DNA from: Eukaryota sp. GEM-RC1
Lineage: Eukaryota
Reading direction: 5' to 3'
Length of the DNA stretch: 64,000 nucleotides
Assembly (NCBI GenBank): GCA_040285855.1
Contig: JAUFOQ010000002.1
Span: forward strand, 1,550,001-1,614,000
Positions 6,020 through 63,046 of this stretch are shown here, piece by piece. The notes under the pieces are model-generated. The model saw nothing but the letters and a program-made list of their open reading frames with translations. It was not told the origin of the DNA and did no database searches. Position numbers and translations under genes: made by a program. Position 1 is the first letter of the stretch, and every line of letters begins with the position of its first letter.

Positions 6020-9000
6020 GATGGAGTTCCAGTTCAAGGTCTTTGCGGACAGTGGAGCAACAGTCCCAAATCACACAAGACCTGGCTACGAGGTGCAGCA
6101 TGCCCATCGCTCACTTCATCCACCGCCAATGTTGAGTATAAGCCCTTGAATCGCGCACAAGGCATCTTAACCTTCGTACTCAGTAATAAAAGCTTACCTG
6201 ACAAACGTTGATTAGACCCTCCCAATAATTCCCGGATCCAACAAACTATTATTGGGAATCGATCTCTGAAAACAGTTGGGAATGCTGAACGAAGACGGAC
6301 CAGTCATCCGGATTGATAGGCTCCCATTGCCATCTTGAACGACGAGTGTGAATTCAACTCACGTTCATCCAACCAAGTAACCATTTCTATTGATAGCTTT
6401 GTAGACTGTAATTAAACAATCTATTAATTCCGGTTGCACCACACAAAACTCGATGATACAAACAGGACCAAGAATATATTGTGCCTTTACAGGAGTTTTC
6501 CTCAATATACTCGTATGTCCCTCACCAAGACGGCATCAATTGTCTTCCTACGATGATTGACTTCTACACTAGAAGAGTCCTCTGTGAGAAGGAATCCACG
6601 GTCAAATTCATATATTCAATGGATTTCCGAATGATCCTTGAACGTGTTCAAAGGAATTTAGCTGAGATTCAACTCCAAAGAACAGTTCAGCTCAATGGTA
6701 ACTCATGCAGTTCACCCGATCAACGTAGGTACCAACTTACCGGTGACTACTGTGTTTCCAATGAGATCAAAGCTCTAACTCGCGTACTCGAATTGAACCT
6801 CCCATGGAACATCGATAGTAGTAACCGAGGCAATTTTCCAAAAATTTGATGTATGAAAGATTCGACCATGAGGGCATATTCATTTACATCGATGACATAA
6901 TCATAGTAGGCCGCACATTCGAAGAGTTTATGGGCCGAATACGATTCGCTCTAAACAAAGCATTCACACGTAGAATCAACCTTGGCCTACCAAAATGCCA
7001 CTTTGTGACTAAGAGACACCCACTAAAGATCTTGGATAGTAAGTTCGTTAACAATACACGCAGTATTGACCCTTCGCGTATCACAGCTCTCCTAGAGTTG
7101 CCCGTACCAACAACAATCAAAGAAGTTCGTAGCTTCGTGGGTTCGAGAAACTACATCAAAGACTTTATCCCAGGTGCGTCAGACTTTCTGGCCCCAATCA
7201 TCAGCTTAGTCAAGAACAACGCTCGTTCAGTAAAATGGACTCCACTCCATCAATCTAATTTTGAGACAATCAGAAATAAGATCATCAATCACATGCTTCT
7301 CAGTCTACCAGACAGGGTCAACGCGTGCTGATTAGTGCAGACGCCAGTGATATTGCCGTAGGTGGTGTCAATTGGCAGGAAATACCTCCCAACGCACAAG
7401 ATGGAACTCCTTTGAACAACAGGAAAGTTATCCCACTAGCTTTCTACAGCAAACTCCTAACGGAATCTCAACAAAACTGGGCAACAATTTAGAAAGAGTT
7501 GTACGCCATTGTTCTGATCCTAACGGAATCACCCATGTCATCATTCCTCCTGAGCAGGGATCTAACCATCTTCACAGATCATAGAAACCTAGCTTTCCTC
7601 ATCTCAGCACCCGAGAAAAACAGAGTAGTCAAGCGTTGGATACATATCCTAAGCGAATTCCAATTCTCGGTGATCCACACCATTGGAGAAGACAACCACT
7701 GGGCAGATATGTTATCTCGAAACATTGAAACCTCTCCACCCGAAAACATAAACCTAGTCACATCTTGCCCCGAGCCGATGTTCTCTAGAGTCGATGGACT
7801 GTGTCGTTCTGATGACGATATGGAATACCAATCGCTGACCTCCGAGTCAATCAACATGATTAGTGAACCATTAATCAACAAGTCAAAAATTTTTGACGCT
7901 TGGCTATCCAAAGTACGCTCCACACAAGTAGAAGCCAAGAACAACAACGACGTACTGTTTCAGCATCCCACTGCTGTATACAACGAAGAGCTCCAGCTAT
8001 TCCTAAATAGCGATGGTAAGATCCTCATCCCTGTGAGTCTTCGGAAAACCACCCCTTTCCCTCACGCAGGCCACCCCAGCCTAAGAGTCAGCATTGATCG
8101 GCTAAACTCTAGTGACTATTTCTGGCCCAAAATGGCCAAAGATATGAAGAAACACTGCATGCAATGCCCAGCTTGTCAAAAGACAGCTCCCCTTGCAAAA
8201 CTCAAAATCAAACCATCAGGTAACCTTTGGGCAGACAAACCATTTGCAAAAAATGAACGCTGACACCATGGACCTTTGCCGACAGACACCTCCGAAACTG
8301 TCACCTTCTCGTATTCATAGACTCGTTTACCCGTTATTCAGTTTTATGTCCCTTGAAGGAGCTCAATGCCCAAGAAACCGCCCATGCACTAGTGTGTAAT
8401 GTATGTGCCATCTTTGGTATACCCCATCTGATTCATAGCGATAATGGCAAGGAGTTTGCCAACCATGTCTTTAATGGCGTGTGTCAGGCTTTTGACATCG
8501 ATGCGGAGAAATCCATCCCCAGTTTTTCGCAAAGCAACGGATTAGTGGAACGTCGCCACAGAGACATCCTGCAGTCATTAAGAAAGATGCTTATCGATTT
8601 TAATGATTACGACAACTGGTCCAAGTACATTCCAATTGTACAACTGTTAGTTAACACAACTAAGAGTAGAGTGACAGGTTTCACCCCATACCAACTCATA
8701 TTTGGATCAGCCACCAGCCCTGGTAGCGATCCCAACAAGATCCTAGCTTGTCTCTCACAGGAAAGCCAATCAGAAGATTCCTTCCTGGCAGATTATCAAT
8801 CAAAAATTCAAAGAATTTTGAAAAATCGGGAAGAGGCAGAGATCAATCAATCTTCCACTCAACCCGTGATAACTGTCGAACCAACCTTGTCGTCCCTGTA
8901 CTCGAGTGGAGACTTAGTCCTAAAGACTAACTCCAAAACTAAGAAGCTTCACGGCAAGCTCGAAGGTCCATTCCTGGTCATCGACACGCCCACCGCAAGC

Positions 9001-9384
9001 TCTCTTATCTTACAGAACATTATCACTGGACATCAGTTCAAATGTAGTGTTCACCAATGTAAGAAATACCTCACTGACAAACCCTCGTCTGACGAGTTCC
9101 ACAAAGCTGTCGCCTCCTGTGACTCAGAGGAAATGATCGTGATTAAGGTGCTGTCCCAATCCGACTCATCCTCAGGACCTGTTTGTTCAGTCGTCTGGTT
9201 CGATGGTGATACCACCGAGGTGCCTTTGGATCAAATAAAGAACACCAAAGCGTATTCCGAGTTTATTAAATCTAATCCCTCCTACAAGCCACCTACTAGA
9301 AAGAAACGAAGCGTTCAGGGTAGTTCCAGCCGTGCCTCTCCACCTGCCAAGAGGACCAGATCCTCGAGAAAGGGGAAAAAGTAG
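6020..9384 (+). pseudogene. pol: pol polyprotein remnants: protease, RT, RNase H, integrase with chromodomain-like tail
   Basis: FADSGA (protease); YIDDIII (RT); ADASDIAVGG and TDHRNL (RNase H); HAGHP...CPAC, HSDNGKEF, SNGLVER, GPF (integrase); IKVLS...VVWFDGDTTEVP chromo-like; several frameshifts. Confidence 0.9.
9366..9384 (+). other. polypurine tract
   Basis: gagaaaggggaaaaagtag directly abuts the 3' LTR and also encodes the last integrase codons RKGKK*. Confidence 0.85.
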
Positions 9385-17518: not shown

Positions 17519-17779
17519 CTAGAGACCTCCTCTAAGAGCTAAGACAAGATGGACACAGTCACCAGCCTTGATACCACAACTACTAACAGTTTGTTCGTCA
17601 TTAAGGGGTTGGCCGTTAAAGATAATACTGGGATCAACGATGAGTGAAACCTACCGTTGTTGCGATGGATGGATGCCTTCCTTTTCTTGAATTCTCTGTT
17701 TGATTCGAGAAACTTTGTCCGATTCTTCAACTGTAAGAGAGAGTGTAGCACCAGTAAGAGTTTTGACTTGGAGATTCAT
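17519..17779 (-). CDS. NEDD8: NEDD8/Rub1 ubiquitin-like modifier; one 27-nt intron at 17628-17654
   Basis: Spliced product MNLQVKTLTG...RIKQRIQEKEGIHPSQQRIIFNGQPL...VHLVLALRGGL*, 77 aa, with the NEDD8-type Ala72 (LALRGG). Confidence 0.9.
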
Positions 17780-18170: not shown

Positions 18171-19427
18171 CTACAGTTGCCATACAGTTAGAGAACTATC
18201 CAAATGTCCTAATATTAATCGACGGTCTTCTGAAACGAACCAAATAGCTGTAACCTGTTGTGCCAATCCATTTTCTCTCAGACTAGACTCTAAATCATAC
18301 TGGTGAAGCAGACTTCCTGTAATAGGATCAATGATGTTAACAACCATGACAAAGCTAGCATTTTCAACCACAGAAACTAAGAAACGTTCACTTGGGTCAA
18401 CAACAGTACAAGAGAAATCATCAAAATCACAATTAACCATCGTGCTTGGAAGTTTGTTAACTAGCTCGAGTTCATCATTAAGAAGCAACGCAAAACCTTT
18501 ACGACTGAACGCAATGATTCGACTTGCTGAGTGAAGTAGCAAAAATGAAGAAACAGACTGAAGCCCATCATATCTGTTGTCCCTAAAGGTTTCATTAACT
18601 GGTCGTTTGATCGAATTCATAGTTCTCATGTTACAAGCCTTCATGAAGCCAGCATTAGGACCTAGAGGACAGAAGCAAAATGCAAGATCGCCTACAGCTT
18701 CAGTATAGAGTATGTTGTAAGTAACTGGATGAGGAAGTCCACGAGGTTGAAGCTTTAGTGAAGTAGTGCAAAGAATAGAACCATCAACAAGATCGTATAT
18801 TAGTATAGGTATTTGAGATTGAAAGTTGGGTTGGTGAAAGACAACTAGACGATCTGGACAGAGTTTGACTTCAAGAACATTGTTAGAGGAGATGGAGTAG
18901 AGAAAGTGATAGTTATTAAGTTCCCAAATACGATATGTTTGATCTGGTGCACTATAAGTTATGGCTCGATTGGCTTTGGATTCAAACTCAACAAATCCAG
19001 GATGACGGAAAGTCTCTGAGGTAAACAGTTTGGTTGCACCTTCTCTAGCTCTGCCTTGTTTGATGAAATCCACTGGAAATGATATAACGTGCAATAGGAG
19101 ATGAGTTTCTGACTTTTTGGTGGCTACAGTTAGAATAGTTCTATTTTTATGATGAGCGAACAGTGAGCGGACGATGTAATTATCATCAATTTGAAGCTTA
19201 CCTAAAGATTGTAGAGTGCACATGTCAGCAACTCTTGCGATGCCATTTGAATCAAGATAAACGATCAGATCATTTGTTGATAGTACTTCCACAATTTTGG
19301 CTGCATCAGAACTTCCTTTTACGCGACCACAGAACCGCGGTTTAAGGCCAAAGAATGAATGTGGGGGACATCCAACGACGGCATAGTCATTGTGCAACAT
19401 GAGATTGTGACAACATTCAGGATTCAT
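18171..19427 (-). CDS. WD40-like beta-propeller protein of a conserved uncharacterised family
   Basis: Long open frame; HPGFVEFE...ITYSA...YRIWELNNY.FLYSIS...V.EVK resembles an uncharacterised WD40-like family I recall from plants and protists; C-terminal LILGHLDSSLTVW. Confidence 0.7.
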   Translation of the reverse strand: MNPECCHNLMLHNDYAVVGCPPHSFFGLKPRFCGRVKGSSDAAKIVEVLSTNDLIVYLDSNGIARVADMCTLQSLGKLQIDDNYIVRSLFAHHKNRTILTVATKKSETHLLLHVISFPVDFIKQGRAREGATKLFTSETFRHPGFVEFESKANRAITYSAPDQTYRIWELNNYHFLYSISSNNVLEVKLCPDRLVVFHQPNFQSQIPILIYDLVDGSILCTTSLKLQPRGLPHPVTYNILYTEAVGDLAFCFCPLGPNAGFMKACNMRTMNSIKRPVNETFRDNRYDGLQSVSSFLLLHSASRIIAFSRKGFALLLNDELELVNKLPSTMVNCDFDDFSCTVVDPSERFLVSVVENASFVMVVNIIDPITGSLLHQYDLESSLRENGLAQQVTAIWFVSEDRRLILGHLDSSLTVWQL

Positions 19428-19504
19428 AGCAACATCAGATGCCGGCAAAAATTTGTCAGTTATTAGACTTGCTTCTACTCTCTCACTAATATGTATTGCT
19501 TACA

Positions 19505-19587
19505 TTCACTACAAAACTCTAAATCAGAACTATGCGAGCTGAATTCAGTTTGTCACATACACGTCACATTAAGAGAATTGTTGTGAA
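19505..19587 (-). promoter_or_regulatory. type II SECIS element (GUGA_AAA_GA)
   Basis: Minus strand: helix I, core G-UGAC at 19567-19563, 11 nt, AAA (19551-19549), minihelix CUG-AAUU-CAG, helix II UAUGUGA/UCGCAUA, 3' core UGAU (19526-19523). Confidence 0.72.
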
Positions 19588-19600
19588 AAGAACATGTCAA

Positions 19601-19894
19601 TTAACATCATTTCGACATTCCCTTTGTTGGATCCTTGGGGGGTTCAACAATTGGTTGAAGAAGAGCCTCAAGATCAGAGAACGATGGACATTTCCCAAAG
19701 CATTCAAGTAAAGTTTCATTATTATACTCTTGTACTAGACAAAACACATCTGGTCGTGGATCTACTTCATCATCATTGTAGTTGATGTTGAAGTGAATCT
19801 GAATTTTGCCTGGAAAACGACGAATAAGTTGCATTTCAAGAGCTTCTGCGCTACGTTTTAGACTAGGACAAACTTCGAGGAGAAAGGTTGGCAT
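19601..19894 (-). CDS. Rdx/SelW-like small protein; candidate selenoprotein ending ...GMSK-U-C
   Basis: MPTFLLEVCPSLKRSAEALEMQLIRRFPG...RPDVF.LV...LL...KCPSFSDL follows the Rdx pattern; ends AAA TGA TGT TAA; SECIS-like hairpin directly downstream. Confidence 0.65.
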
Positions 19895-19984: not shown

Positions 19985-20056
19985 TCTTCTGTAGTGTAAT
20001 GGTTAGCACGCTTGACTTTGAATCAAGCAATCCCAGTTCGATTCTGGGCAGAAGAA
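19985..20056 (+). tRNA. trnQ-UUG: tRNA-Gln(UUG)
   Basis: Acceptor TCTTCTG/CAGAAGA; anticodon arm CTTGA-CTTTGAA-TCAAG; T arm CCCAG-TTCGATT-CTGGG. Confidence 0.95.
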
Positions 20057-21030: not shown

Positions 21031-21662
21031 TAGGGTTGTCAATGACTTGACTCAGGTCGCAAGTCGCAAGTCAAAGTCAAGTCGACTTGATATTTTCCAA
21101 GTCAAGTCATTTGACTTGACTTGTAAGTAATGCCGCTTTTTTATAGACGGCGGGCAACTGAATATCAATGTAAGAAGCTCAAATACTGCAACTTTTTTAG
21201 TCACTAGTAAATTAATTCGTGGTTCTTGCGTCCCTTGCAAGAGACTTTTTGGCTATTCCAGCCACGTCTGTTCCCTGTGAACGAGTGTTTTCACTTGCAG
21301 GGAACATTAAAAATTAGAAGAGAAGCAGACTCGGTGATGATTCGTTCACTTTATTAACCCTGTTAAAGGACGTTGGAAAAGGGTTATGATATCTTAGAAG
21401 CCTGTAGTGACGACGAAGACGAAGACGTTGGTCAGAATATTGGGGAAGTTGTGGTCTAGTACTAGTGTACTACATGTAGTAGGTGTATCACTTATACTTA
21501 TTTATACTAATAAATTGATGTTAAACTATGATGAGCATTGGTTAATGATGCATTTCTATCAGCACTCACATCATTTTGCTCAAGTCGACTTGGGACGATT
21601 TGACTTGACTTGATGAATGACTCAAGTCAAAGTCAAGTCGACTTGAGTCATTGACAACCCAA
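21031..21662 (+). mobile_element. non-autonomous hAT element
   Basis: TIR TAGGGTTGTCAATGACT; GACTT/AAGTC subterminal repeats; internal LAIPATSVPCERVFSLAG dimerisation-domain remnant; TSD not preserved. Confidence 0.8.
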
Positions 21663-23472: not shown

Positions 23473-24812
23473 TTACGCTGATCGGATATTTCTTGGACAA
23501 TCTTTACGTAAATGACCGACTTGTTTACACTTTCCACATGGTGCTTTACATGTCTTTTGGAAGTGACCTAAAAGCAGACAGTTCTTACACACTGCTTTCT
23601 TCTTTGGAACTACCTCTTTGTTTTGAATACCATGATCTTTGGGTTCATCAATAGATGTGTTAGCAGCTGGAGGTAACAGAGGTTCACTTATGCTCTGCAA
23701 TGCTTGTTCAAGATGTTTCCTCGTTCTCATCTTCTGGACAGCTGTGTAAGAAGTCCAATTCTTGTACAAGATATCGATCACATCTTCTTCATCATCTTGT
23801 TGTTCACTAGCATCACATTCCAGGCACCAATGGTTGTGAAATGCTTCCAGACTTAATCGCTTTCGTACTTGCAGAAGTTCATGGGCACAGGGTATACCGT
23901 ATACTCTTCGTTGATATCCTTGACAAATAAGTTCATCACTTCCTGGATCCTCTTCCTCAACCTCTTGAAGTCTTTGCATTTTCTTAAATCTGTCATGTAC
24001 CATTGCAAGAGCATACTGTGGATTCTTTGCCGTGTAGTTTGTTGAAGATCGGATCTCTCACTGTCTTTACTAACCGACATTGTTTTTCCCTTTCTATGTC
24101 AACACGCCTTTCTTCTGTGGATCTCAACATTACTTCAATAGCCCGTTCTGATGCTTCCAGGAGAGTCATATTACTCATCTTCTGATTCTTCAACGTTGCA
24201 TGAGATCCTTCAACTCTTTGACTTGTATATGATCCAAAGTGAGTGAATTCATCTACCCAACATTTTCCAAAATACCGTCGCAGAGGGATCCATTGAGATG
24301 TGATGTACGCAACAGCAGCATCAAAGTCCGGAATTGACTGCGATTTCTCAGTCAAGTTACTCAATCTCCAGTTAAACTCTTCTTCACAACTGGAATTTAC
24401 CACATTAGTCCATAAATACCATTCGATTTTTTTAGAGAACTGTGACCATCCTTTTTTCTGCATATGTGATCTTTTGTTGCAACATTGCGAATGATCTAGT
24501 AACATAACATTTGATCCACGTCTGGCCAGACGTGGGTCATTCTCCAGCAGCCTTTATCAAAGCTTTGTCTGCATCAGTACAGACTACTTTTGGGCGACAT
24601 CCCATAACTTCATCAAGCGTGTTTAAAATCCAACGGAAATCCATCGTTGCTTCCTTAGCAATAAAGGCATATGCAATATGGAAAGTTCGCATACAGCAGT
24701 CAATTCCAACAACTGACATCAATGGCAACTGATGCTTGTTAGTGCCGTAAGTACAGTCCATAATAACAATTGAATTGAATTTCTTAAACATATTAATATA
24801 TGAAATACCTGC
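23473..24812 (-). pseudogene. Mutator-like (MULE) transposase remnant
   Basis: MDCTYGTNKHQLPL...AYAFI..E...W...TDADKAL (MULE); TSQRVEGSHATLK; SWIM GIPCAH; two CCHC knuckles; frameshifts and stops. Confidence 0.9.
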
Positions 24813-24844
24813 TACAGTCAAAACCATACTTGTGGATCACAAAC

Positions 24845-34532: not shown

Positions 34533-35363
34533 TAGGGCTCCCAATTCACCCGGGTGGGGTCACCCCACCCTCAATCTTTGAGAATCACCCGGGGTGACCC
34601 CAAACCTAACACCGGGTGAAGTCACCCGCTTCACCCGGCTCACCCATGAAAAGTATAAACTAGTACTCGTAATAAAATATGAAATATGTTATATATTCAA
34701 ACAATTAACATAAGAACTTAATGATGTTTCTAATAATTAAACAATGATTGTTCAACAATAAAAGCTAGTCTTGAGAAGGTTCTGGAAATCTTTTCAACAT
34801 CTCATCGGTCAGTTTTTCACCCATATCCAAGCCAGGAACAACGCCACTCCAACATTTTAAGCAGACTCGTGCTCGCAGTGATTCATCAGTAAGTGATGCT
34901 CTTTGCAGAAGAAACCCATCCAGTCGGACGTGGAAGTTTTGTGACAGTGAAGGGGGGTGAAGGTGAAGTCAGGTTAAATCGTAACACGCCATCCTTGTTA
35001 CGTAGAGTACTAGACATTAATGGTTAGGAAAGTACAAGTAAAAATAATTTGTACAAAAGTCTTACTGTTTATGTAAGAATTGTTTCTACTGTGATTTTGA
35101 TTTTGTGTATTGATGCAACTAGATATTAAAACTGGACAAAAATAAAATACTGTATAATGTAAATAAAGCCAAGAATACAACATGAATCACTCATGTATGA
35201 ATTCATGTTTCAATAAAATGGAAAATCACCCGGGTCACCCCACCCCAAGGCTAAATCGACCCCGGGTCACCCCAGACTTCTTTGATGGGTGACATCACCC
35301 GGGTGGGGTGAACCCGACCCGGTGAATATTTTGTCACCCGGGTGGGGTGAATTGGGAGCCCTA
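34533..35363 (-). mobile_element. non-autonomous hAT element (CACCCGGG family)
   Basis: TIR TAGGGCTCCCAATTCACCC; TSD ATCACAAC; RASLTDESLRARVCLKCW remnant. Confidence 0.93.
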
Positions 35364-35420: not shown

Positions 35421-38400
35421 ATGGACCAATCAAGAATTGCTCACTTCCACATTGAGCTGCGAGTATGTAGCATCATGATGTTCTCTTTTACTTCAGAATT
35501 CTTCATTCCCTCCTTCACGAACTTCGTCCGAGAATACGCCCAATGACGAACTATCAATGCTTTTACAGAACATTGAAGCAACAACAGCACATCAGTTAAG
35601 CTCATCAGAGAACTTTTTATTCCTTTCCGTCAATCAGAGTACTAGTCCTTGTAATCACATTGGTGTGTCGTTTTTCGATCTTCATCTAACATTAGTACTG
35701 AACATTGGTTTCAACGATGAAGTAGCTCAAAAGCTTGCCCTCGTTACTGATCCTCTGTTTGTCTACCAATGTTACCGTCTTTTCATTGAGACTTATTCCT
35801 CTGTAGTATTCGGAGTATCTCCTCAGGACTTGTCCGATATTGCTGAAGAAATTGGACTTGCTGAATCTAGTAAGAATGATCTAACGAAATTGAAAATGTT
35901 GATCGATGGCTATCAAAACCTCCTCCAATTCTTGAACCATGTCATTCCTCAAGATCCAAGGGAACAACTATCACTGTATGTCCAAAAAGTCTCTGAAAAT
36001 CTTCCAACTGACCCCATTCAATTGAAAGTTCAATGTCTTCTCATCAATGATATCCACCAACCAGCCATCACGATTGATCCTTCCACGAAATCCTTTGTTA
36101 CTTGTGAACATGGATTTGACCAAAATGATACTCTCATTCAATCAAATACTGGTACTACTTCTGATGAGAAGCTAGATAGAATCACAAAGGATTTAAACGC
36201 AAAGGCTGAATCTATTGAAGATGTTGTGTTGTTTATTAGAGCAGAGCCTAAAGTAGAATATAGTTCTTCAGCTTTTGCTCAATTCAAGAGTAAGTTCATG
36301 GTTAAACGAAATACGGGTATAGCTGCTGCTGCCTGTCTTGTTCTTGTAATCTTGAGTGTTCTGCTTTTCGTATTCCTTCGTTCATCGTCAAAGACTTTCC
36401 TTGTCTCTGGAACAGTCGGGAATGATTCGGTTGAACTTGCGGACGTTCTTGTCTCTGGTGATGGTTTTGTTAGTGTCTACTCTAATGCTGACGGTTTCTT
36501 TGAGCTTCAGCCACTTGTTAATGGAATATATGAACTCACTTTCGAACTTGCGGGCTACGATACAAAGTCTGTCAATGTTACAGTGTCTGACAGTGACAAC
36601 TCGATTAATGTTTCTCTATCCTTAAATACTTTTGTTGTATCTGGATCCATTACTAGTGATTCGGTTGAACTTGCGGACGTTCTTGTCTCTAGTGATGGTT
36701 TTGTTAGTGTCTACTCTAATGCTGACGGTTTCTTTGAGCTTCAGCCACTTGTTAATGGTTTATATGAAGTCACTTTCGAACTTGCGGGCTACGATACAAA
36801 GTCTGTCAATGTTACAGTGTCTGACAGTAACGAGTTGATTGATGTTTCTCTATCCTTAAATACTTTTGTTGTATCTGGATCCATTACTAGTAATTCGGTT
36901 GAACTTGCGGACGTTCTTGTCTCTGGTGATGGTTTTGTTAGTGTCTACTCTAATGCTGACGGTTTCTTTGAGCTTCAGCCACTTGTTAATGGAATATATG
37001 AACTCACTTTCGAACTTGCGGGCTACGATACAAAGTCTGTCAATGTTACAGTGTCTGACAGTAACGAGTTGATTGATGTTTCTCTATCCTTAAATACTTT
37101 TGTTGTATCTGGATCCATTACTAGTAATTCGGTTGAACTTGCGGACGTTCTTGTCTCTGGTGATGGTTTTGTTAGTGTCTACTCTAATGCTGACGGTTTC
37201 TTTGAGCTTCAGCCACTTGTTAATGGAATATATGAACTCACTTTCGAACTTGCGGGCTACGATACAAAGTCTGTCAATGTTACAGTGTCTGACAGTAACG
37301 AGTTGATTGATGTTTCTCTGTCCATAAGTGTCTTTGTTGTATCTGGAACCGTGACTAGTGATTCATTTGCTCTGGAAAATGTTGTAGTGTCTGTTGATGG
37401 TGACTTTGTTTTGACCACTGATGACGTTGGCAGATATGAACTTGAGCTTACAAATGCTGATTATGAGATCAAATTCGAGCTAGGAGGTTTTGTTACAAAG
37501 TTTATCAGTGTTACAGTTTCTGGCAATGATCAGATTATTGATGTTTCTCTTGAACCTCTTTTTACATTGGAACTTTATATCTATGACGATGTTACTTCCG
37601 AAGCGCTTTTCAATCCTCGTGTTAAGATCAATCAAGATTTGATTGTCAATGGAGATGAAACAGGACACATCACTGTTGATTTGATTGCTGGTCATTATGA
37701 GCTCACTTTAATGCATCCTGATTTCTTTGATCAAACTCTAACAGTGCATCTAGACAGTTCTAGGACTGAGTCGGTGTTGATGACTCGTCATGCGTTTTCT
37801 GTTGATGGTGACACCATTACTAGTTACGATGACTCTTTCGGTCCAGACGTAGTAATTCCTTCCAGTGTTAATGGAATTCAGATTACTACAATTGGGGCTG
37901 GCGTTTTCGAATCTAAACAGCTAACATCTGTCCATATTCCAAACAGTGTTACTTCTATCAATAGTAATGCTTTTCGCAATAATCTCATCAATGAAGTAGT
38001 AATACCTGATAGTGTAACAAATATTGGCGAATCGGCTTTCAAGAATAGTGGTCTGATAACTCTAACTCTTAGCGAGTCTCTCACTTTCATCAGGTCATCT
38101 GTCTTTGAAGGCAATCAGATAACATCCGTGGTCATTCCTAATGGTGTAACCTCTATTGGTTCCTATGCTTTTAGGAACAATCACTTGTCATCAGTAGTTC
38201 TGTCTGAATCTCTTGTTCAGATATATGCCGGTGCGTTTGAAGGCAATTCGTTGACCAACATTGTCATTCCATCATCTGTTACAACGATATCACTTACTGC
38301 GTTTCGGTCCAATCAATTGATTTCTGTTGAATTTGGTCATTCTTTAGAAAGCATTTCCGCACAGGCATTTCACGGGAATTCCAATTTAGAATGAATCAAG

Positions 38401-38595
38401 CTTCCGCCCAGCCTACAACAATTAAGTATGGATGTCTTCACAGGGTGCCCCCTGTTATCTGTTGAGATTTTTGATGGTGTTTCTGTTCATTCCACTTCCA
38501 TTCCAGGACAATTCAGTTCTGTTTATAATGCAAATGGAGCTGGTCTGTACACCAGAGCAAGTACTTCGGACTCCTTTTCCTTTCAACAGGAATAG
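35421..38595 (+). CDS. type II membrane protein: N-terminal domain, TM helix, CarboxypepD_reg/PEGA-like repeats, BspA-type LRRs; 34-nt intron 35463-35496; in-frame TGA at 38392
   Basis: Intron GTATGT...CTTCAG fuses MDQSRIAHFHIELR in frame to the 945-aa ORF; TM AAAACLVLVILSVLLFVFL; 78-aa repeats; LTSV.IP.SVT.I...AF..N repeats continue 66 codons past the TGA. Confidence 0.85.
36394..37329 (+). repeat. four near-identical 234-bp coding tandem repeats, followed by a diverged fifth
   Basis: Unit starts at 36394, 36628, 36862, 37096. Confidence 0.95.
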
Positions 38596-43046: not shown

Positions 43047-44514
43047 TCACACAATTGATCTGATTCTCCTATAATCATCATTCCTCTCCAGAATATCCCA
43101 CACAGGTTCAAGCAAAGACAATCGTACATCCACATCCTCACTTGTATCTACACCCAACCCCTGAGTTTCCGAAGGAAGGAAATAAGCAAGACCATCAGCA
43201 ACAGATCCTACAGAGAAAGGAGGAGATACCAATAGAGGTCGGTTTCCTGCTAGTTTCATTGTTTCATAACAATCGAACTTAGACCACTGAGAGGTCATGA
43301 AAGCACCGGATCCAAATCTAAAACCACTTTTAATTACTCTTTTATTTGGCTGAGCACAGATCCACCACAACAACTTCCTTATATCATCAGAATTAGGCCG
43401 ATCATCCTTACTCAAGGCATGCCACTTGCTGGCAACCTCCCACAGAGGAGCATTGGCCAGTGTTTCAGAGGAAATAGTACCGTGAGGGATTAAGAGGGCA
43501 TTGGGGAAATACATTGGAGGAAGGTCAGGAAGTCTGGAGCCTCTGCAATTAATGGAAGTAAGAAAATCTGGAGGAGATAGAAGTGAGATATCATCAGCAT
43601 AAAACTGTTGTCGAGATCGATGAACAATCTGATGGAAAAAAGCAGAGAGAGCTTCGAAAGTTGAAACCCATGAATTAGAATCAAGAGGGTTAGTGGCTTC
43701 ACGTTTAATTTGGTCAACTTGCTTCCTTGTAAACCTTACAATTTTTCCAAGAATACCATACTCAATCTTCTTCACTTCCTTTTCACCATCATCCTTGTCA
43801 TCGTCCTTCTTCACTTCCTGAGGTACATGGTCAGCATTAAGTAGTTTAGGGTCATGTTTAAGTGCCAACTGCTTCTCTTCAGTGGTCATGTCGTTGTTGT
43901 CCAAGAACGGCATACAGTAGGGTTCAACACTGAGTACAGGATTCTCGTGAGCAGAGAGTTTGTTGTAGATCTCTGTCAATCCACGACAAAACTGGAAGAA
44001 ACCATCACCATCACAAGCCACGTGATGGATTCTGATACCAAGGATTGACCCTGAACACGAGAACTTGGTATGTTTGACTGTCAGTATCGGATCTGTACAA
44101 AACCCATCAATAGAGGGATCAAAAGGAGCCAAAAAGCAATTACCACCGTCAGGGGAGATCAGTTACGGTGAAACGATCTGCCACGTCATCACTAGTGGAG
44201 AATGACTTCAGAGGTTGGTTGTAATGAGTAAGATGTAGTTGTGCACCAGTATTGATTTTTGAGATTTGATAGCTGCCATCAGAGGTACTGATTTGGAATC
44301 GTCCTGTGAGGATGGGGTAGTAATCAAGGAGATGTTCCAAAGAGGTTTGAAGTAAGTTGGCATCTAGGCCATGACGGTAGATGAAAAGAACAGCAATGGG
44401 CACAGGAGTCCCTGCAAGTTGGTCGAAAGGGCTCAAAGTAATAGGGGTCTGGAACTGGTCTTCAGATTTACTCCTGCAGTGCAGAGTGTGTACCGCTAAA
44501 TCAGATAAACACAT
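43047..44514 (-). CDS. CoA-dependent acyltransferase (BAHD/Transferase family); one apparent indel at ~44150
   Basis: LSPFDQ, SLEHLLDYYPILTGR, HxxxD motif HHVACDG, VSTFEALSA, YFPNA, TSQWSKFD. Confidence 0.85.
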
Positions 44515-44685
44515 AAAAAGAGTCTTGGTAACACCACAGTTACACGAACAAATAAGTTGGTATCCACTGCTGTTTTTTACTACATGTAGTATACAAGTTC
44601 GAATTACACCCACACAAAAAGCTCTCTATTTAACGATTCTTCTTTGTCTTAAGCATCTCACTAAGTGCTTTCTGTATTGAACTGC

Positions 44686-62964: not shown

Positions 62965-63046
62965 TGCACAGGACGAGACTCGAACTCGCGCGGCTCTCGC
63001 CATTGGGACTTGAATCCAACTCCTTAACCAACTCGGACACCTGTGC
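62965..63046 (-). tRNA. trnL-CAA: tRNA-Leu(CAA)
   Basis: Acceptor GCACAGG/CCTGTGC plus discriminator A; loop TT-CAA-GT; long variable arm TGGC-GAGA-GCCG; T arm GCGAG-TTCGAGT-CTCGT; A31-C39 mismatch. Confidence 0.92.

Follow-up and report, generated by a model that had tools for sequence, protein, structure and literature searches.

A short gene on the minus strand of the window, by which we mean the whole 64,000-nucleotide stretch of Eukaryota sp. GEM-RC1 DNA that was analysed, probably encodes a new selenoprotein of the Rdx fold with selenocysteine (Sec) at its C-terminus, in which UGA codon 96 (UGA96) is, we infer, recoded as Sec and decoded at least part of the time. With slightly less assurance, we favor the view that it represents a family of the skoliomonads' own, characterized by a SelW-like fold without the N-terminal CxxU, Sec on a C-terminal tail with a partner Cys on either side, and a selenocysteine insertion sequence (SECIS) at 40 nt, in which case the reported spacing limit would not be universal. 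Both the fold and the recoding signal are known; the position of the redox centre would be new and the spacing is unusually short. The relevant features are as follows.

19601..19894, minus strand: candidate selenoprotein gene, Rdx/SelW-like and thioredoxin-like (from the ORF, gapless homolog alignment, predicted models and fold matches)
19868..19870, minus strand: Cys9, conserved without exception in the three homologs, where helix 1 begins
19607..19609, minus strand: TGA codon 96, the candidate selenocysteine codon, matching the end column of homolog P0125
19601..19606, minus strand: TGT (Cys97, 19606-19604) and TAA (19603-19601), directly after the TGA
19505..19587, minus strand: type II SECIS-shaped hairpin of 83 nt (from MFE fold, pattern scan and Rfam alignment)
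18171..19448, minus strand: gene for a DUF7899 protein, the downstream neighbour
19985..20056, plus strand: tRNA-Gln(TTG), the divergent neighbour, 90 nt upstream of the ATG and not a Sec tRNA

The ORF, the TGA and the hairpin all lie on the minus strand of the window. A first-pass annotation, which did not state the strand, had read the end of the ORF as AAA-TGA-TGT-TAA, and this is confirmed. The ORF runs from an ATG at 19894 through 19610 and comprises 95 aa, so the product would have 95 aa if the UGA stops and 97 aa if it is Sec. No intron is necessary, and a 31-nt GT-AG stretch at 19765-19735 was rejected as one because the homologs align across it without a gap. The window was found to hold no paralog of the gene. 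The UGA-UGU-UAA itself is predicted to sit in a loop of 11 nt, closed by a 7-bp stem, at 19594-19618 (minus strand), with pair probabilities of 0.77-0.95.

Downstream of the stop codon, the SECIS-shaped hairpin has a helix I whose roughly 12-13 bp fall into three blocks, and a helix II with seven firm pairs. Its core is formed by a 5′ UGAC from 19566, preceded by a G at 19567 (19567-19563 with the G included), and a 3′ UGAU from 19526 (19526-19523); an unpaired AAA (19551-19549) lies 11 nt above the 5′ core, next to an apical CUG/CAG minihelix of 3 bp (19548-19546/19541-19539). The MFE fold of 88 nt (-23.1 kcal/mol, z -2.64, with 3 of 200 shuffles equally stable) recovered helix I, helix II and the minihelix, thereby bearing out the earlier description of a hairpin with a G.A core, AAA 11 nt above it, a minihelix and a long helix I. 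Folding stability by itself is unexceptional: z values of -2.6 or lower were reached by 9 of 150 random 88-nt windows, and the native sequence was matched in stability by 21 of 200 shuffles of the 111-nt stretch and by 147 of 200 when only the upper 56 nt were taken.

A hand check against the SECISearch criteria, taken as they are quoted in PMC1802603, found NTGA, 10-13 nt to the AA, a loop of 6-23 nt, limited stem defects and a lower stem. The core also fits the UGAN/KGAW consensus quoted from PMC3753652, with helix II at the limit of permitted defects; its base is weak, containing a U.U mismatch and one bulge, and amounts to only -6.7 kcal/mol. The Rfam SECIS_1 model (RF00031) aligned its positions 1-64 of 64 to 19577-19515 and ranked first among 4227 families for a 111-nt query, at a score of 13 bits (E 5.7) that lies below the gathering threshold of 35; with a 901-nt query it gave no report. 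SECIS elements outside metazoans are described as the hardest to predict (PMC3753652). The candidate thus resembles eukaryotic type II elements in its UGAN/KGAW core, the 11 nt to an unpaired AA, the minihelix, the lower stem and the full-length alignment, but differs in having G rather than A before the core, a weak helix II base, 13 bits as against 35, and a position 40 nt from the UGA. An AGTGAA at the 3′ end of the hairpin, resembling the Giardia poly(A) signal (PMC1805757), was considered as a poly(A) signal of this gene; the motif stands behind only 3 of 12 gene ends and nothing was drawn from it.

Could the hairpin and the TGT-TAA be accidental, and the gene encode an ordinary small thioredoxin-fold protein that stops at its TGA? 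The random windows of equal stability (9 of 150) speak for this reading, and the frequency of such hairpins was estimated by running a SECIS scanner (pattern plus energy) over 37.5 Mb of block-shuffled window as the null. Loose hits numbered 6780; a moderate cut left 602, and 43 scored as high as the candidate, giving chance rates per 300 nt of about 5e-3 at the moderate cut and about 3e-4 at the candidate's score, the threshold for the latter being set post hoc, after the candidate was known. In the 128 kb of real sequence (both strands of the window), 3 of 23 pattern hits score as high as the candidate. The other two are near-perfect inverted repeats, at 21613-21655 and 35308-35350 on the plus strand, and no evident TGA-ending gene precedes either of them; the second sits among repeated CACCCGGG units.

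The Cys codon and stop behind the TGA can be gauged in the same way. TGA is followed by TGY and a stop in 13 of 3033 TGA triplets of the window and in 1 of the 23 TGA-ending ORFs of at least 80 aa, namely the candidate. The pattern can arise by chance, since one of the 32 ORFs ending in TAA or TAG, a TAG-ending one, also has TGT and a stop behind it. Multiplying the hairpin rate (3e-4 to 5e-3) by that of Cys plus stop (0.004) gives a joint chance of about 1e-6 to 2e-5 per TGA-ending gene, a figure that leaves the protein evidence aside; the selenoprotein-family fold and a homolog whose C-x-x end falls at the same column come on top of it. Coincidence is accordingly quite improbable, and the Sec reading draws further on the homologs.

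A sequence search over 1.84 billion representatives returned one real relative, P0123 (KAL0219767.1, gene P9112_005420), which is 41% identical without gaps over residues 1-94, and a profile search added a second, P0125 (KAL0219797.1, gene P9112_005450), at 46% identity. Both derive from the same contig of Eukaryota sp. TZLM1-RC and share 63% identity with each other (57/90). A 439-aa match, P0124 (E 6e-4), was set aside, its short similarity to an unrelated, repeated domain being attributed to chance. Scans of metagenome contigs for homologs proposed 195 and 347 candidate stretches, none of which was confirmed. Cys9 is kept in all three proteins and Cys69 in two of the three.

The C-termini of these proteins are of particular relevance. 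Both the candidate ORF and P0125 continue for nine residues past a shared EPP anchor; the candidate then reaches its TGA, and P0125, having passed through an identical EPPKDPTK followed by S-C-K-A, reaches its annotated end, so that C-K-A terminates in the TGA column. This suggests that the end of P0125 would read C-x-x-U if Sec followed the annotated C-K-A. The tail of P0123 is two residues longer, contains no Cys and ends M-A-G-G-G. Gly-rich ends precede the C-terminal Sec of SelK and SelS, and the GGG end of P0123 is similar. Hence, a partner Cys does not occupy one conserved column among the three tails; across ten genes of the window, Cys accounts for 1.7% of residues. No homolog with Cys in place of Sec at the TGA column was found in these searches. 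Matching end columns may also be expected of orthologs for ordinary reasons, and the stops of the homologs may be TAA or TAG.

The first-pass annotation had also proposed an Rdx/SelW-like fold, which the comparison of structures supports, while no sequence profile detects Rdx. Two AlphaFold models (pLDDT 72 and 74) show a thioredoxin-like beta-alpha-beta-beta-beta-alpha arrangement with a tail of low confidence; the predicted elements are beta3-8, alpha10-26, beta32-37, beta51-57, beta60-66 and alpha72-83, with pLDDT below 50 in the tail. In a VIA structural alignment against 48161 chains, the top match was the SelW-related 2fa8 (Z 8.9, rmsd 3.1, 78 residues aligned), the sole chain of the 48161 with Z of at least 8, and mouse SelW (2npb) reached Z 7.2. 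For the second model, the best six chains were 3dex, 2fa8, 2oka, 2obk, 2ojl and 2p0g (Z 7.8-8.7, rmsd 2.1-2.6). All six are bacterial structural-genomics chains, three of them titled SelW-related or selenium-binding, and they outrank every thioredoxin among the 969 chains aligned. Foldseek had matched thioredoxins, mitoribosomal mL43-type chains and a Pseudomonas selenium-binding protein; the full structural alignment ranks SelW-related chains first.

At the level of sequence, neither the candidate nor P0123 matched any Pfam family, PF10262 included, at E ≤ 10, and NCBIfam gave no family match at the same cut-off. PDB sequence searches with the protein and two profiles returned noise only, and a three-sequence profile matched none of 201 bacterial genomes. 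Alignment by hhalign against 25 bacterial Rdx proteins was weak (score 15.9, equalled in 5 of 150 column shuffles). The aligned region comprises the last helix and an EP-x-x-D tail. Atlas feature matches for both homologs pointed, at a score of 0.87, to eukaryotic clusters in which 21-38% of members carry Rdx; these serve as leads only.

The candidate is thus like the Rdx family (SelW, SelT, SelH, SelV and Rdx12; PF10262) in predicted fold and size and in the position of its first Cys, where helix 1 starts, and is weakly like bacterial Rdx proteins (2fa8, 2obk, 2p0g) in the last helix and the EP-x-x-D tail. Unlike them, all three members have two residues fewer at the CxxU/CxxC site, the beta2-beta3 loop is longer, and the candidate Sec lies on the C-terminal tail. 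No second Cys or Sec follows Cys9, where Rdx proteins have the first Cys of CxxC or CxxU, and the N-terminal CxxC/CxxU typical of the Rdx/SelW family is not present. Judging from the models, the protein appears to behave as an Rdx fold, yet it is not classed as a SelW, because the test for CxxU/CxxC and the Pfam profile test both failed. For comparison, the SelW forms listed in an algal survey were only CxxU and UxxU (PMC7539508). The C-P-S found at this site in the candidate invites comparison with the CxU of the SelF/SelM type. This reading seems less likely, residue 11 being S, Y or E across the three proteins; neither SelF nor SelM is among the listed fold matches of the models, which by itself speaks little against it.

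The shortening by two residues that had been noted at the CxxU site holds up: the span from the Cys to the Phe ending helix 1 is 19 residues here, compared with 21 in 24 of 25 bacterial Rdx proteins. Neither homolog has an N-terminal CxxU; in both, the span is again 19 residues and the start Met falls at about the same place. Judged from this alignment, the N-terminal resolving residue was evidently lost long ago, and its absence is real: the shared shortening makes the loss of the CxxU old, and the identical span in all three proteins makes an assembly error unlikely. The suggestion that a TGA-GGN at 19860-19870 had gone missing by assembly error is therefore not supported.

The same evidence bears on the notion of a SECIS acting for an N-terminal Sec that escapes notice because of an assembly deletion or because it lies in an upstream exon or an N-terminal extension. 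The protein is exactly two residues short relative to 24 of 25 bacterial Rdx proteins, two in-frame TGA codons occur just upstream of the ORF, and small introns (27 nt) occur in the genome, all of which this notion would accommodate. It nevertheless has to contend with the common span and start Met of the homologs and with an upstream frame that lacks an ATG before its stop. Moreover, 197 single-intron models with a UGA were available, and among those examined (with a Cys-adjacent UGA or an intron of ≤60 nt) none placed a C-x-x-U before helix 1; these models start at or beyond 19979, and nearly all of them cross the tRNA gene. A concealed N-terminal Sec is, therefore, hardly credible. The short introns themselves are exemplified by a 27-nt GT-AG intron at 17627-17653 (minus strand) in a NEDD8/ubiquitin-like gene.

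Another means of extending the protein would be UGA readthrough without Sec, inserting Cys, Ser or Trp in a leaky system and yielding a Cys-ended tail for, e.g., lipid modification. Rdx12/MIEN1, itself an Rdx protein, carries a C-terminal prenylation motif and would offer a precedent. P0125 has a Cys near its end, and in a BspA-like gene of the window the reading frame meets a TGA at 38392 and stays open for 66 codons past it. This reading is very improbable: it leaves the SECIS unexplained, P0123 ends in GGG, C-K-A followed by a stop provides no four-residue CaaX, and only one of five long TGA-split frames looks like a continued gene, consistent with a nonsense change or an error. The gene in question, of BspA-type leucine-rich repeat/carboxypeptidase-regulatory-like kind, spans 35557-38595 (plus strand), just downstream of the inverted repeat at 35308-35350; its TGA (38392-38394) falls in the last repeat, with the frame continuing to a TAG. 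The window scan gave no strong SECIS-like hit behind this TGA, which is likely a nonsense change or error.

The distance between the UGA and the SECIS is the feature least in keeping with Sec decoding. From the TGA it is 39 nt to the G, 40 nt to the core and 19 nt to the base of helix I, and the caution voiced earlier about this spacing proved real, as these values lie under the reported human-cell minimum. The minimum tested in HEK293 cells is given as 51-111 nt (PMC3753652, PMC8659212) and, as cited there, rests on one deiodinase construct in human cells; the candidate's 40 nt is below this minimum, which as a human-cell value may not hold for metamonads. Mammalian genes are reported to have a UGA-SECIS distance of at least 207 nt (PMC3316567), and in Euplotes thioredoxin reductases the core is reported to lie 124-138 nt past the stop codon (PMC3737529). 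In Lokiarchaeal genes, a UGA with a close SECIS is described as a plain stop (PMC4989117). Passages of PMC5133445 and PMC7539508 contain no spacing data. Genes are densely packed in this genome, where at least one intron is 27 nt long. The first ATG of the downstream DUF7899 gene, at 19427, is 173 nt past the TAA and limits the space for a 3′ UTR; with so short an interval, compaction may have favored a short spacing.

It follows that the SECIS could be real by descent and UGA96 now a plain stop, either because the two are too close or because Sec was lost, with the hairpin persisting as a relic or serving SBP2 binding or mRNA stabilization and the protein ending as a 95-aa chain with a single Cys. 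The spacing, which is under every tested or natural value found, the Lokiarchaeota precedent (PMC4989117) and the weak Rfam score all agree with this reading, which we regard as unlikely without being negligible. A relic of an N-terminal Sec, the orphan SECIS that the first-pass annotation had offered as one of its two options, would have to survive divergence to 41-46% identity with the site missing in all three proteins; as the loss of the N-terminal CxxU is already ancient, a freshly orphaned SECIS is unlikely, and this option loses support. The core, the AAA spacing, the minihelix and the long helix I are still intact, and the Cys and TAA after the TGA, together with the C-x-x end of the homolog, would go unexplained unless the loss were very recent. 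The other option, a C-terminal Sec, gains support from homologs without an N-terminal U and from P0125 ending C-x-x at the TGA column.

Should UGA96 indeed be decoded, it would be read as Sec at least partly, aided by the SECIS-shaped hairpin 40 nt downstream, and the product would be a thioredoxin fold of predicted SelW/Rdx type whose flexible C-terminal tail bears a Sec-Cys pair and ends K-U-C. In an ancestor, the two residues that make up the resolving half of the Rdx CxxU motif would have disappeared, and the redox selenol would have been relocated to a tail of about 13 residues past the last helix. Once there, it could pair in a selenenylsulfide with a Cys nearby, as U-C in the candidate or C-x-x-U in P0125, or else reach Cys9, which occupies the usual active-site position of Rdx proteins; cycling of the selenol with either the adjacent Cys or Cys9 is conceivable. 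The C-terminal arm of animal thioredoxin reductase provides a model for such a tail selenenylsulfide. A likely role would be thiol or oxidant defence in an anaerobe. As for decoding, the ribosome footprint can be used to place helix I relative to the mRNA entry channel: when the UGA occupies the A site, the start of helix I, 19 nt away, would lie just outside the channel, so Sec insertion might be possible but inefficient, and chains stopped at 95 aa would then be mixed with 97-aa chains containing Sec.

To our knowledge, the core folds of known C-terminal-Sec proteins are unrelated to that of the candidate. Placement of Sec on flexible C-terminal tails is common in eukaryotes, and SelTryp, for example, has a C-terminal CxxU (PMC1557815). 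Like thioredoxin reductase, SelK, SelS, SelO and SelTryp, the candidate has its Sec at or near the penultimate position with a Cys nearby. Unlike them, it has the order Sec-Cys rather than Cys-Sec and no transmembrane helix, and the UGA-SECIS distance, reported as 200 nt or more in mammals and trypanosomes, is 40 nt here.

The source organism is a skoliomonad-like metamonad, an anaerobic protist. A NEDD8-activating enzyme encoded in the window is 60% identical to a protein of TZLM1-RC and 48% identical to one of TZLM3-RCL, and the other 117 listed matches have ≤45% identity. We take TZLM1-RC and TZLM3-RCL to be skoliomonads. These are described as anaerobic, free-living metamonads related to barthelonids (PMC11603281, PMC13087550). 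Among other metamonads, Spironucleus salmonicida is reported to possess Sec machinery, with three SelW paralogs as its only selenoproteins (PMC3916229), and Monocercomonoides likewise to have the machinery (PMC6759080). Giardia and Trichomonas have lost Sec (PMC6759080), which places the lineage prior for Sec use below 1. A canonical SECIS was reportedly not found in S. barkhanus ESTs (PMC2874811); for this reason, a canonical SECIS here would inform Sec decoding in metamonads.

Within the window, no Sec machinery was seen among the 34 ORFs searched with Pfam or the two tRNAs. Animal-type thioredoxin reductases end Gly-Cys-Sec-Gly. In S. litria, a highly expressed gene, g6763, is listed with frog thioredoxin reductase 2 as its best match (PMC11316075, supplement file 5, row 100), which is only a hint of Sec use in the lineage; the string 'selen' was absent from the main text and the six searchable supplements of that article. 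A search from 2023 on, reaching few subscription journals, found no literature naming both Skoliomonas and selenocysteine, and no study of skoliomonad or barthelonid selenoproteins, or of an Rdx protein with a C-terminal Sec, was found in the mostly open-access literature covered.

If the Sec reading is true, a family would be added to the eukaryotic selenoproteins, and this gene would be the first evidence found that the skoliomonad/barthelonid lineage, sister to Fornicata, uses Sec. The case would also show a redox centre shifting between the ends of a fold, with three natural tails for comparison, and supply a natural gene on which to test the long-standing 51-111 nt minimum for UGA-SECIS spacing.

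Several other elements of the window deserve mention. The second of its tRNA genes, tRNA-Leu(CAA), lies at 62965-63046 (minus strand), and a transferase-family gene (PF02458) at 43047-44625 (minus strand) occupies two frames, with a break near 44150-44165 that reflects a frameshift or a small intron. Finally, the loci at 7493-9384 (plus strand) and 23473-24827 (minus strand) hold mobile-element remnants, including the RNase H and integrase of an LTR retroelement and, judged by eye, the remains of a MULE-like DNA transposon with a zinc knuckle.
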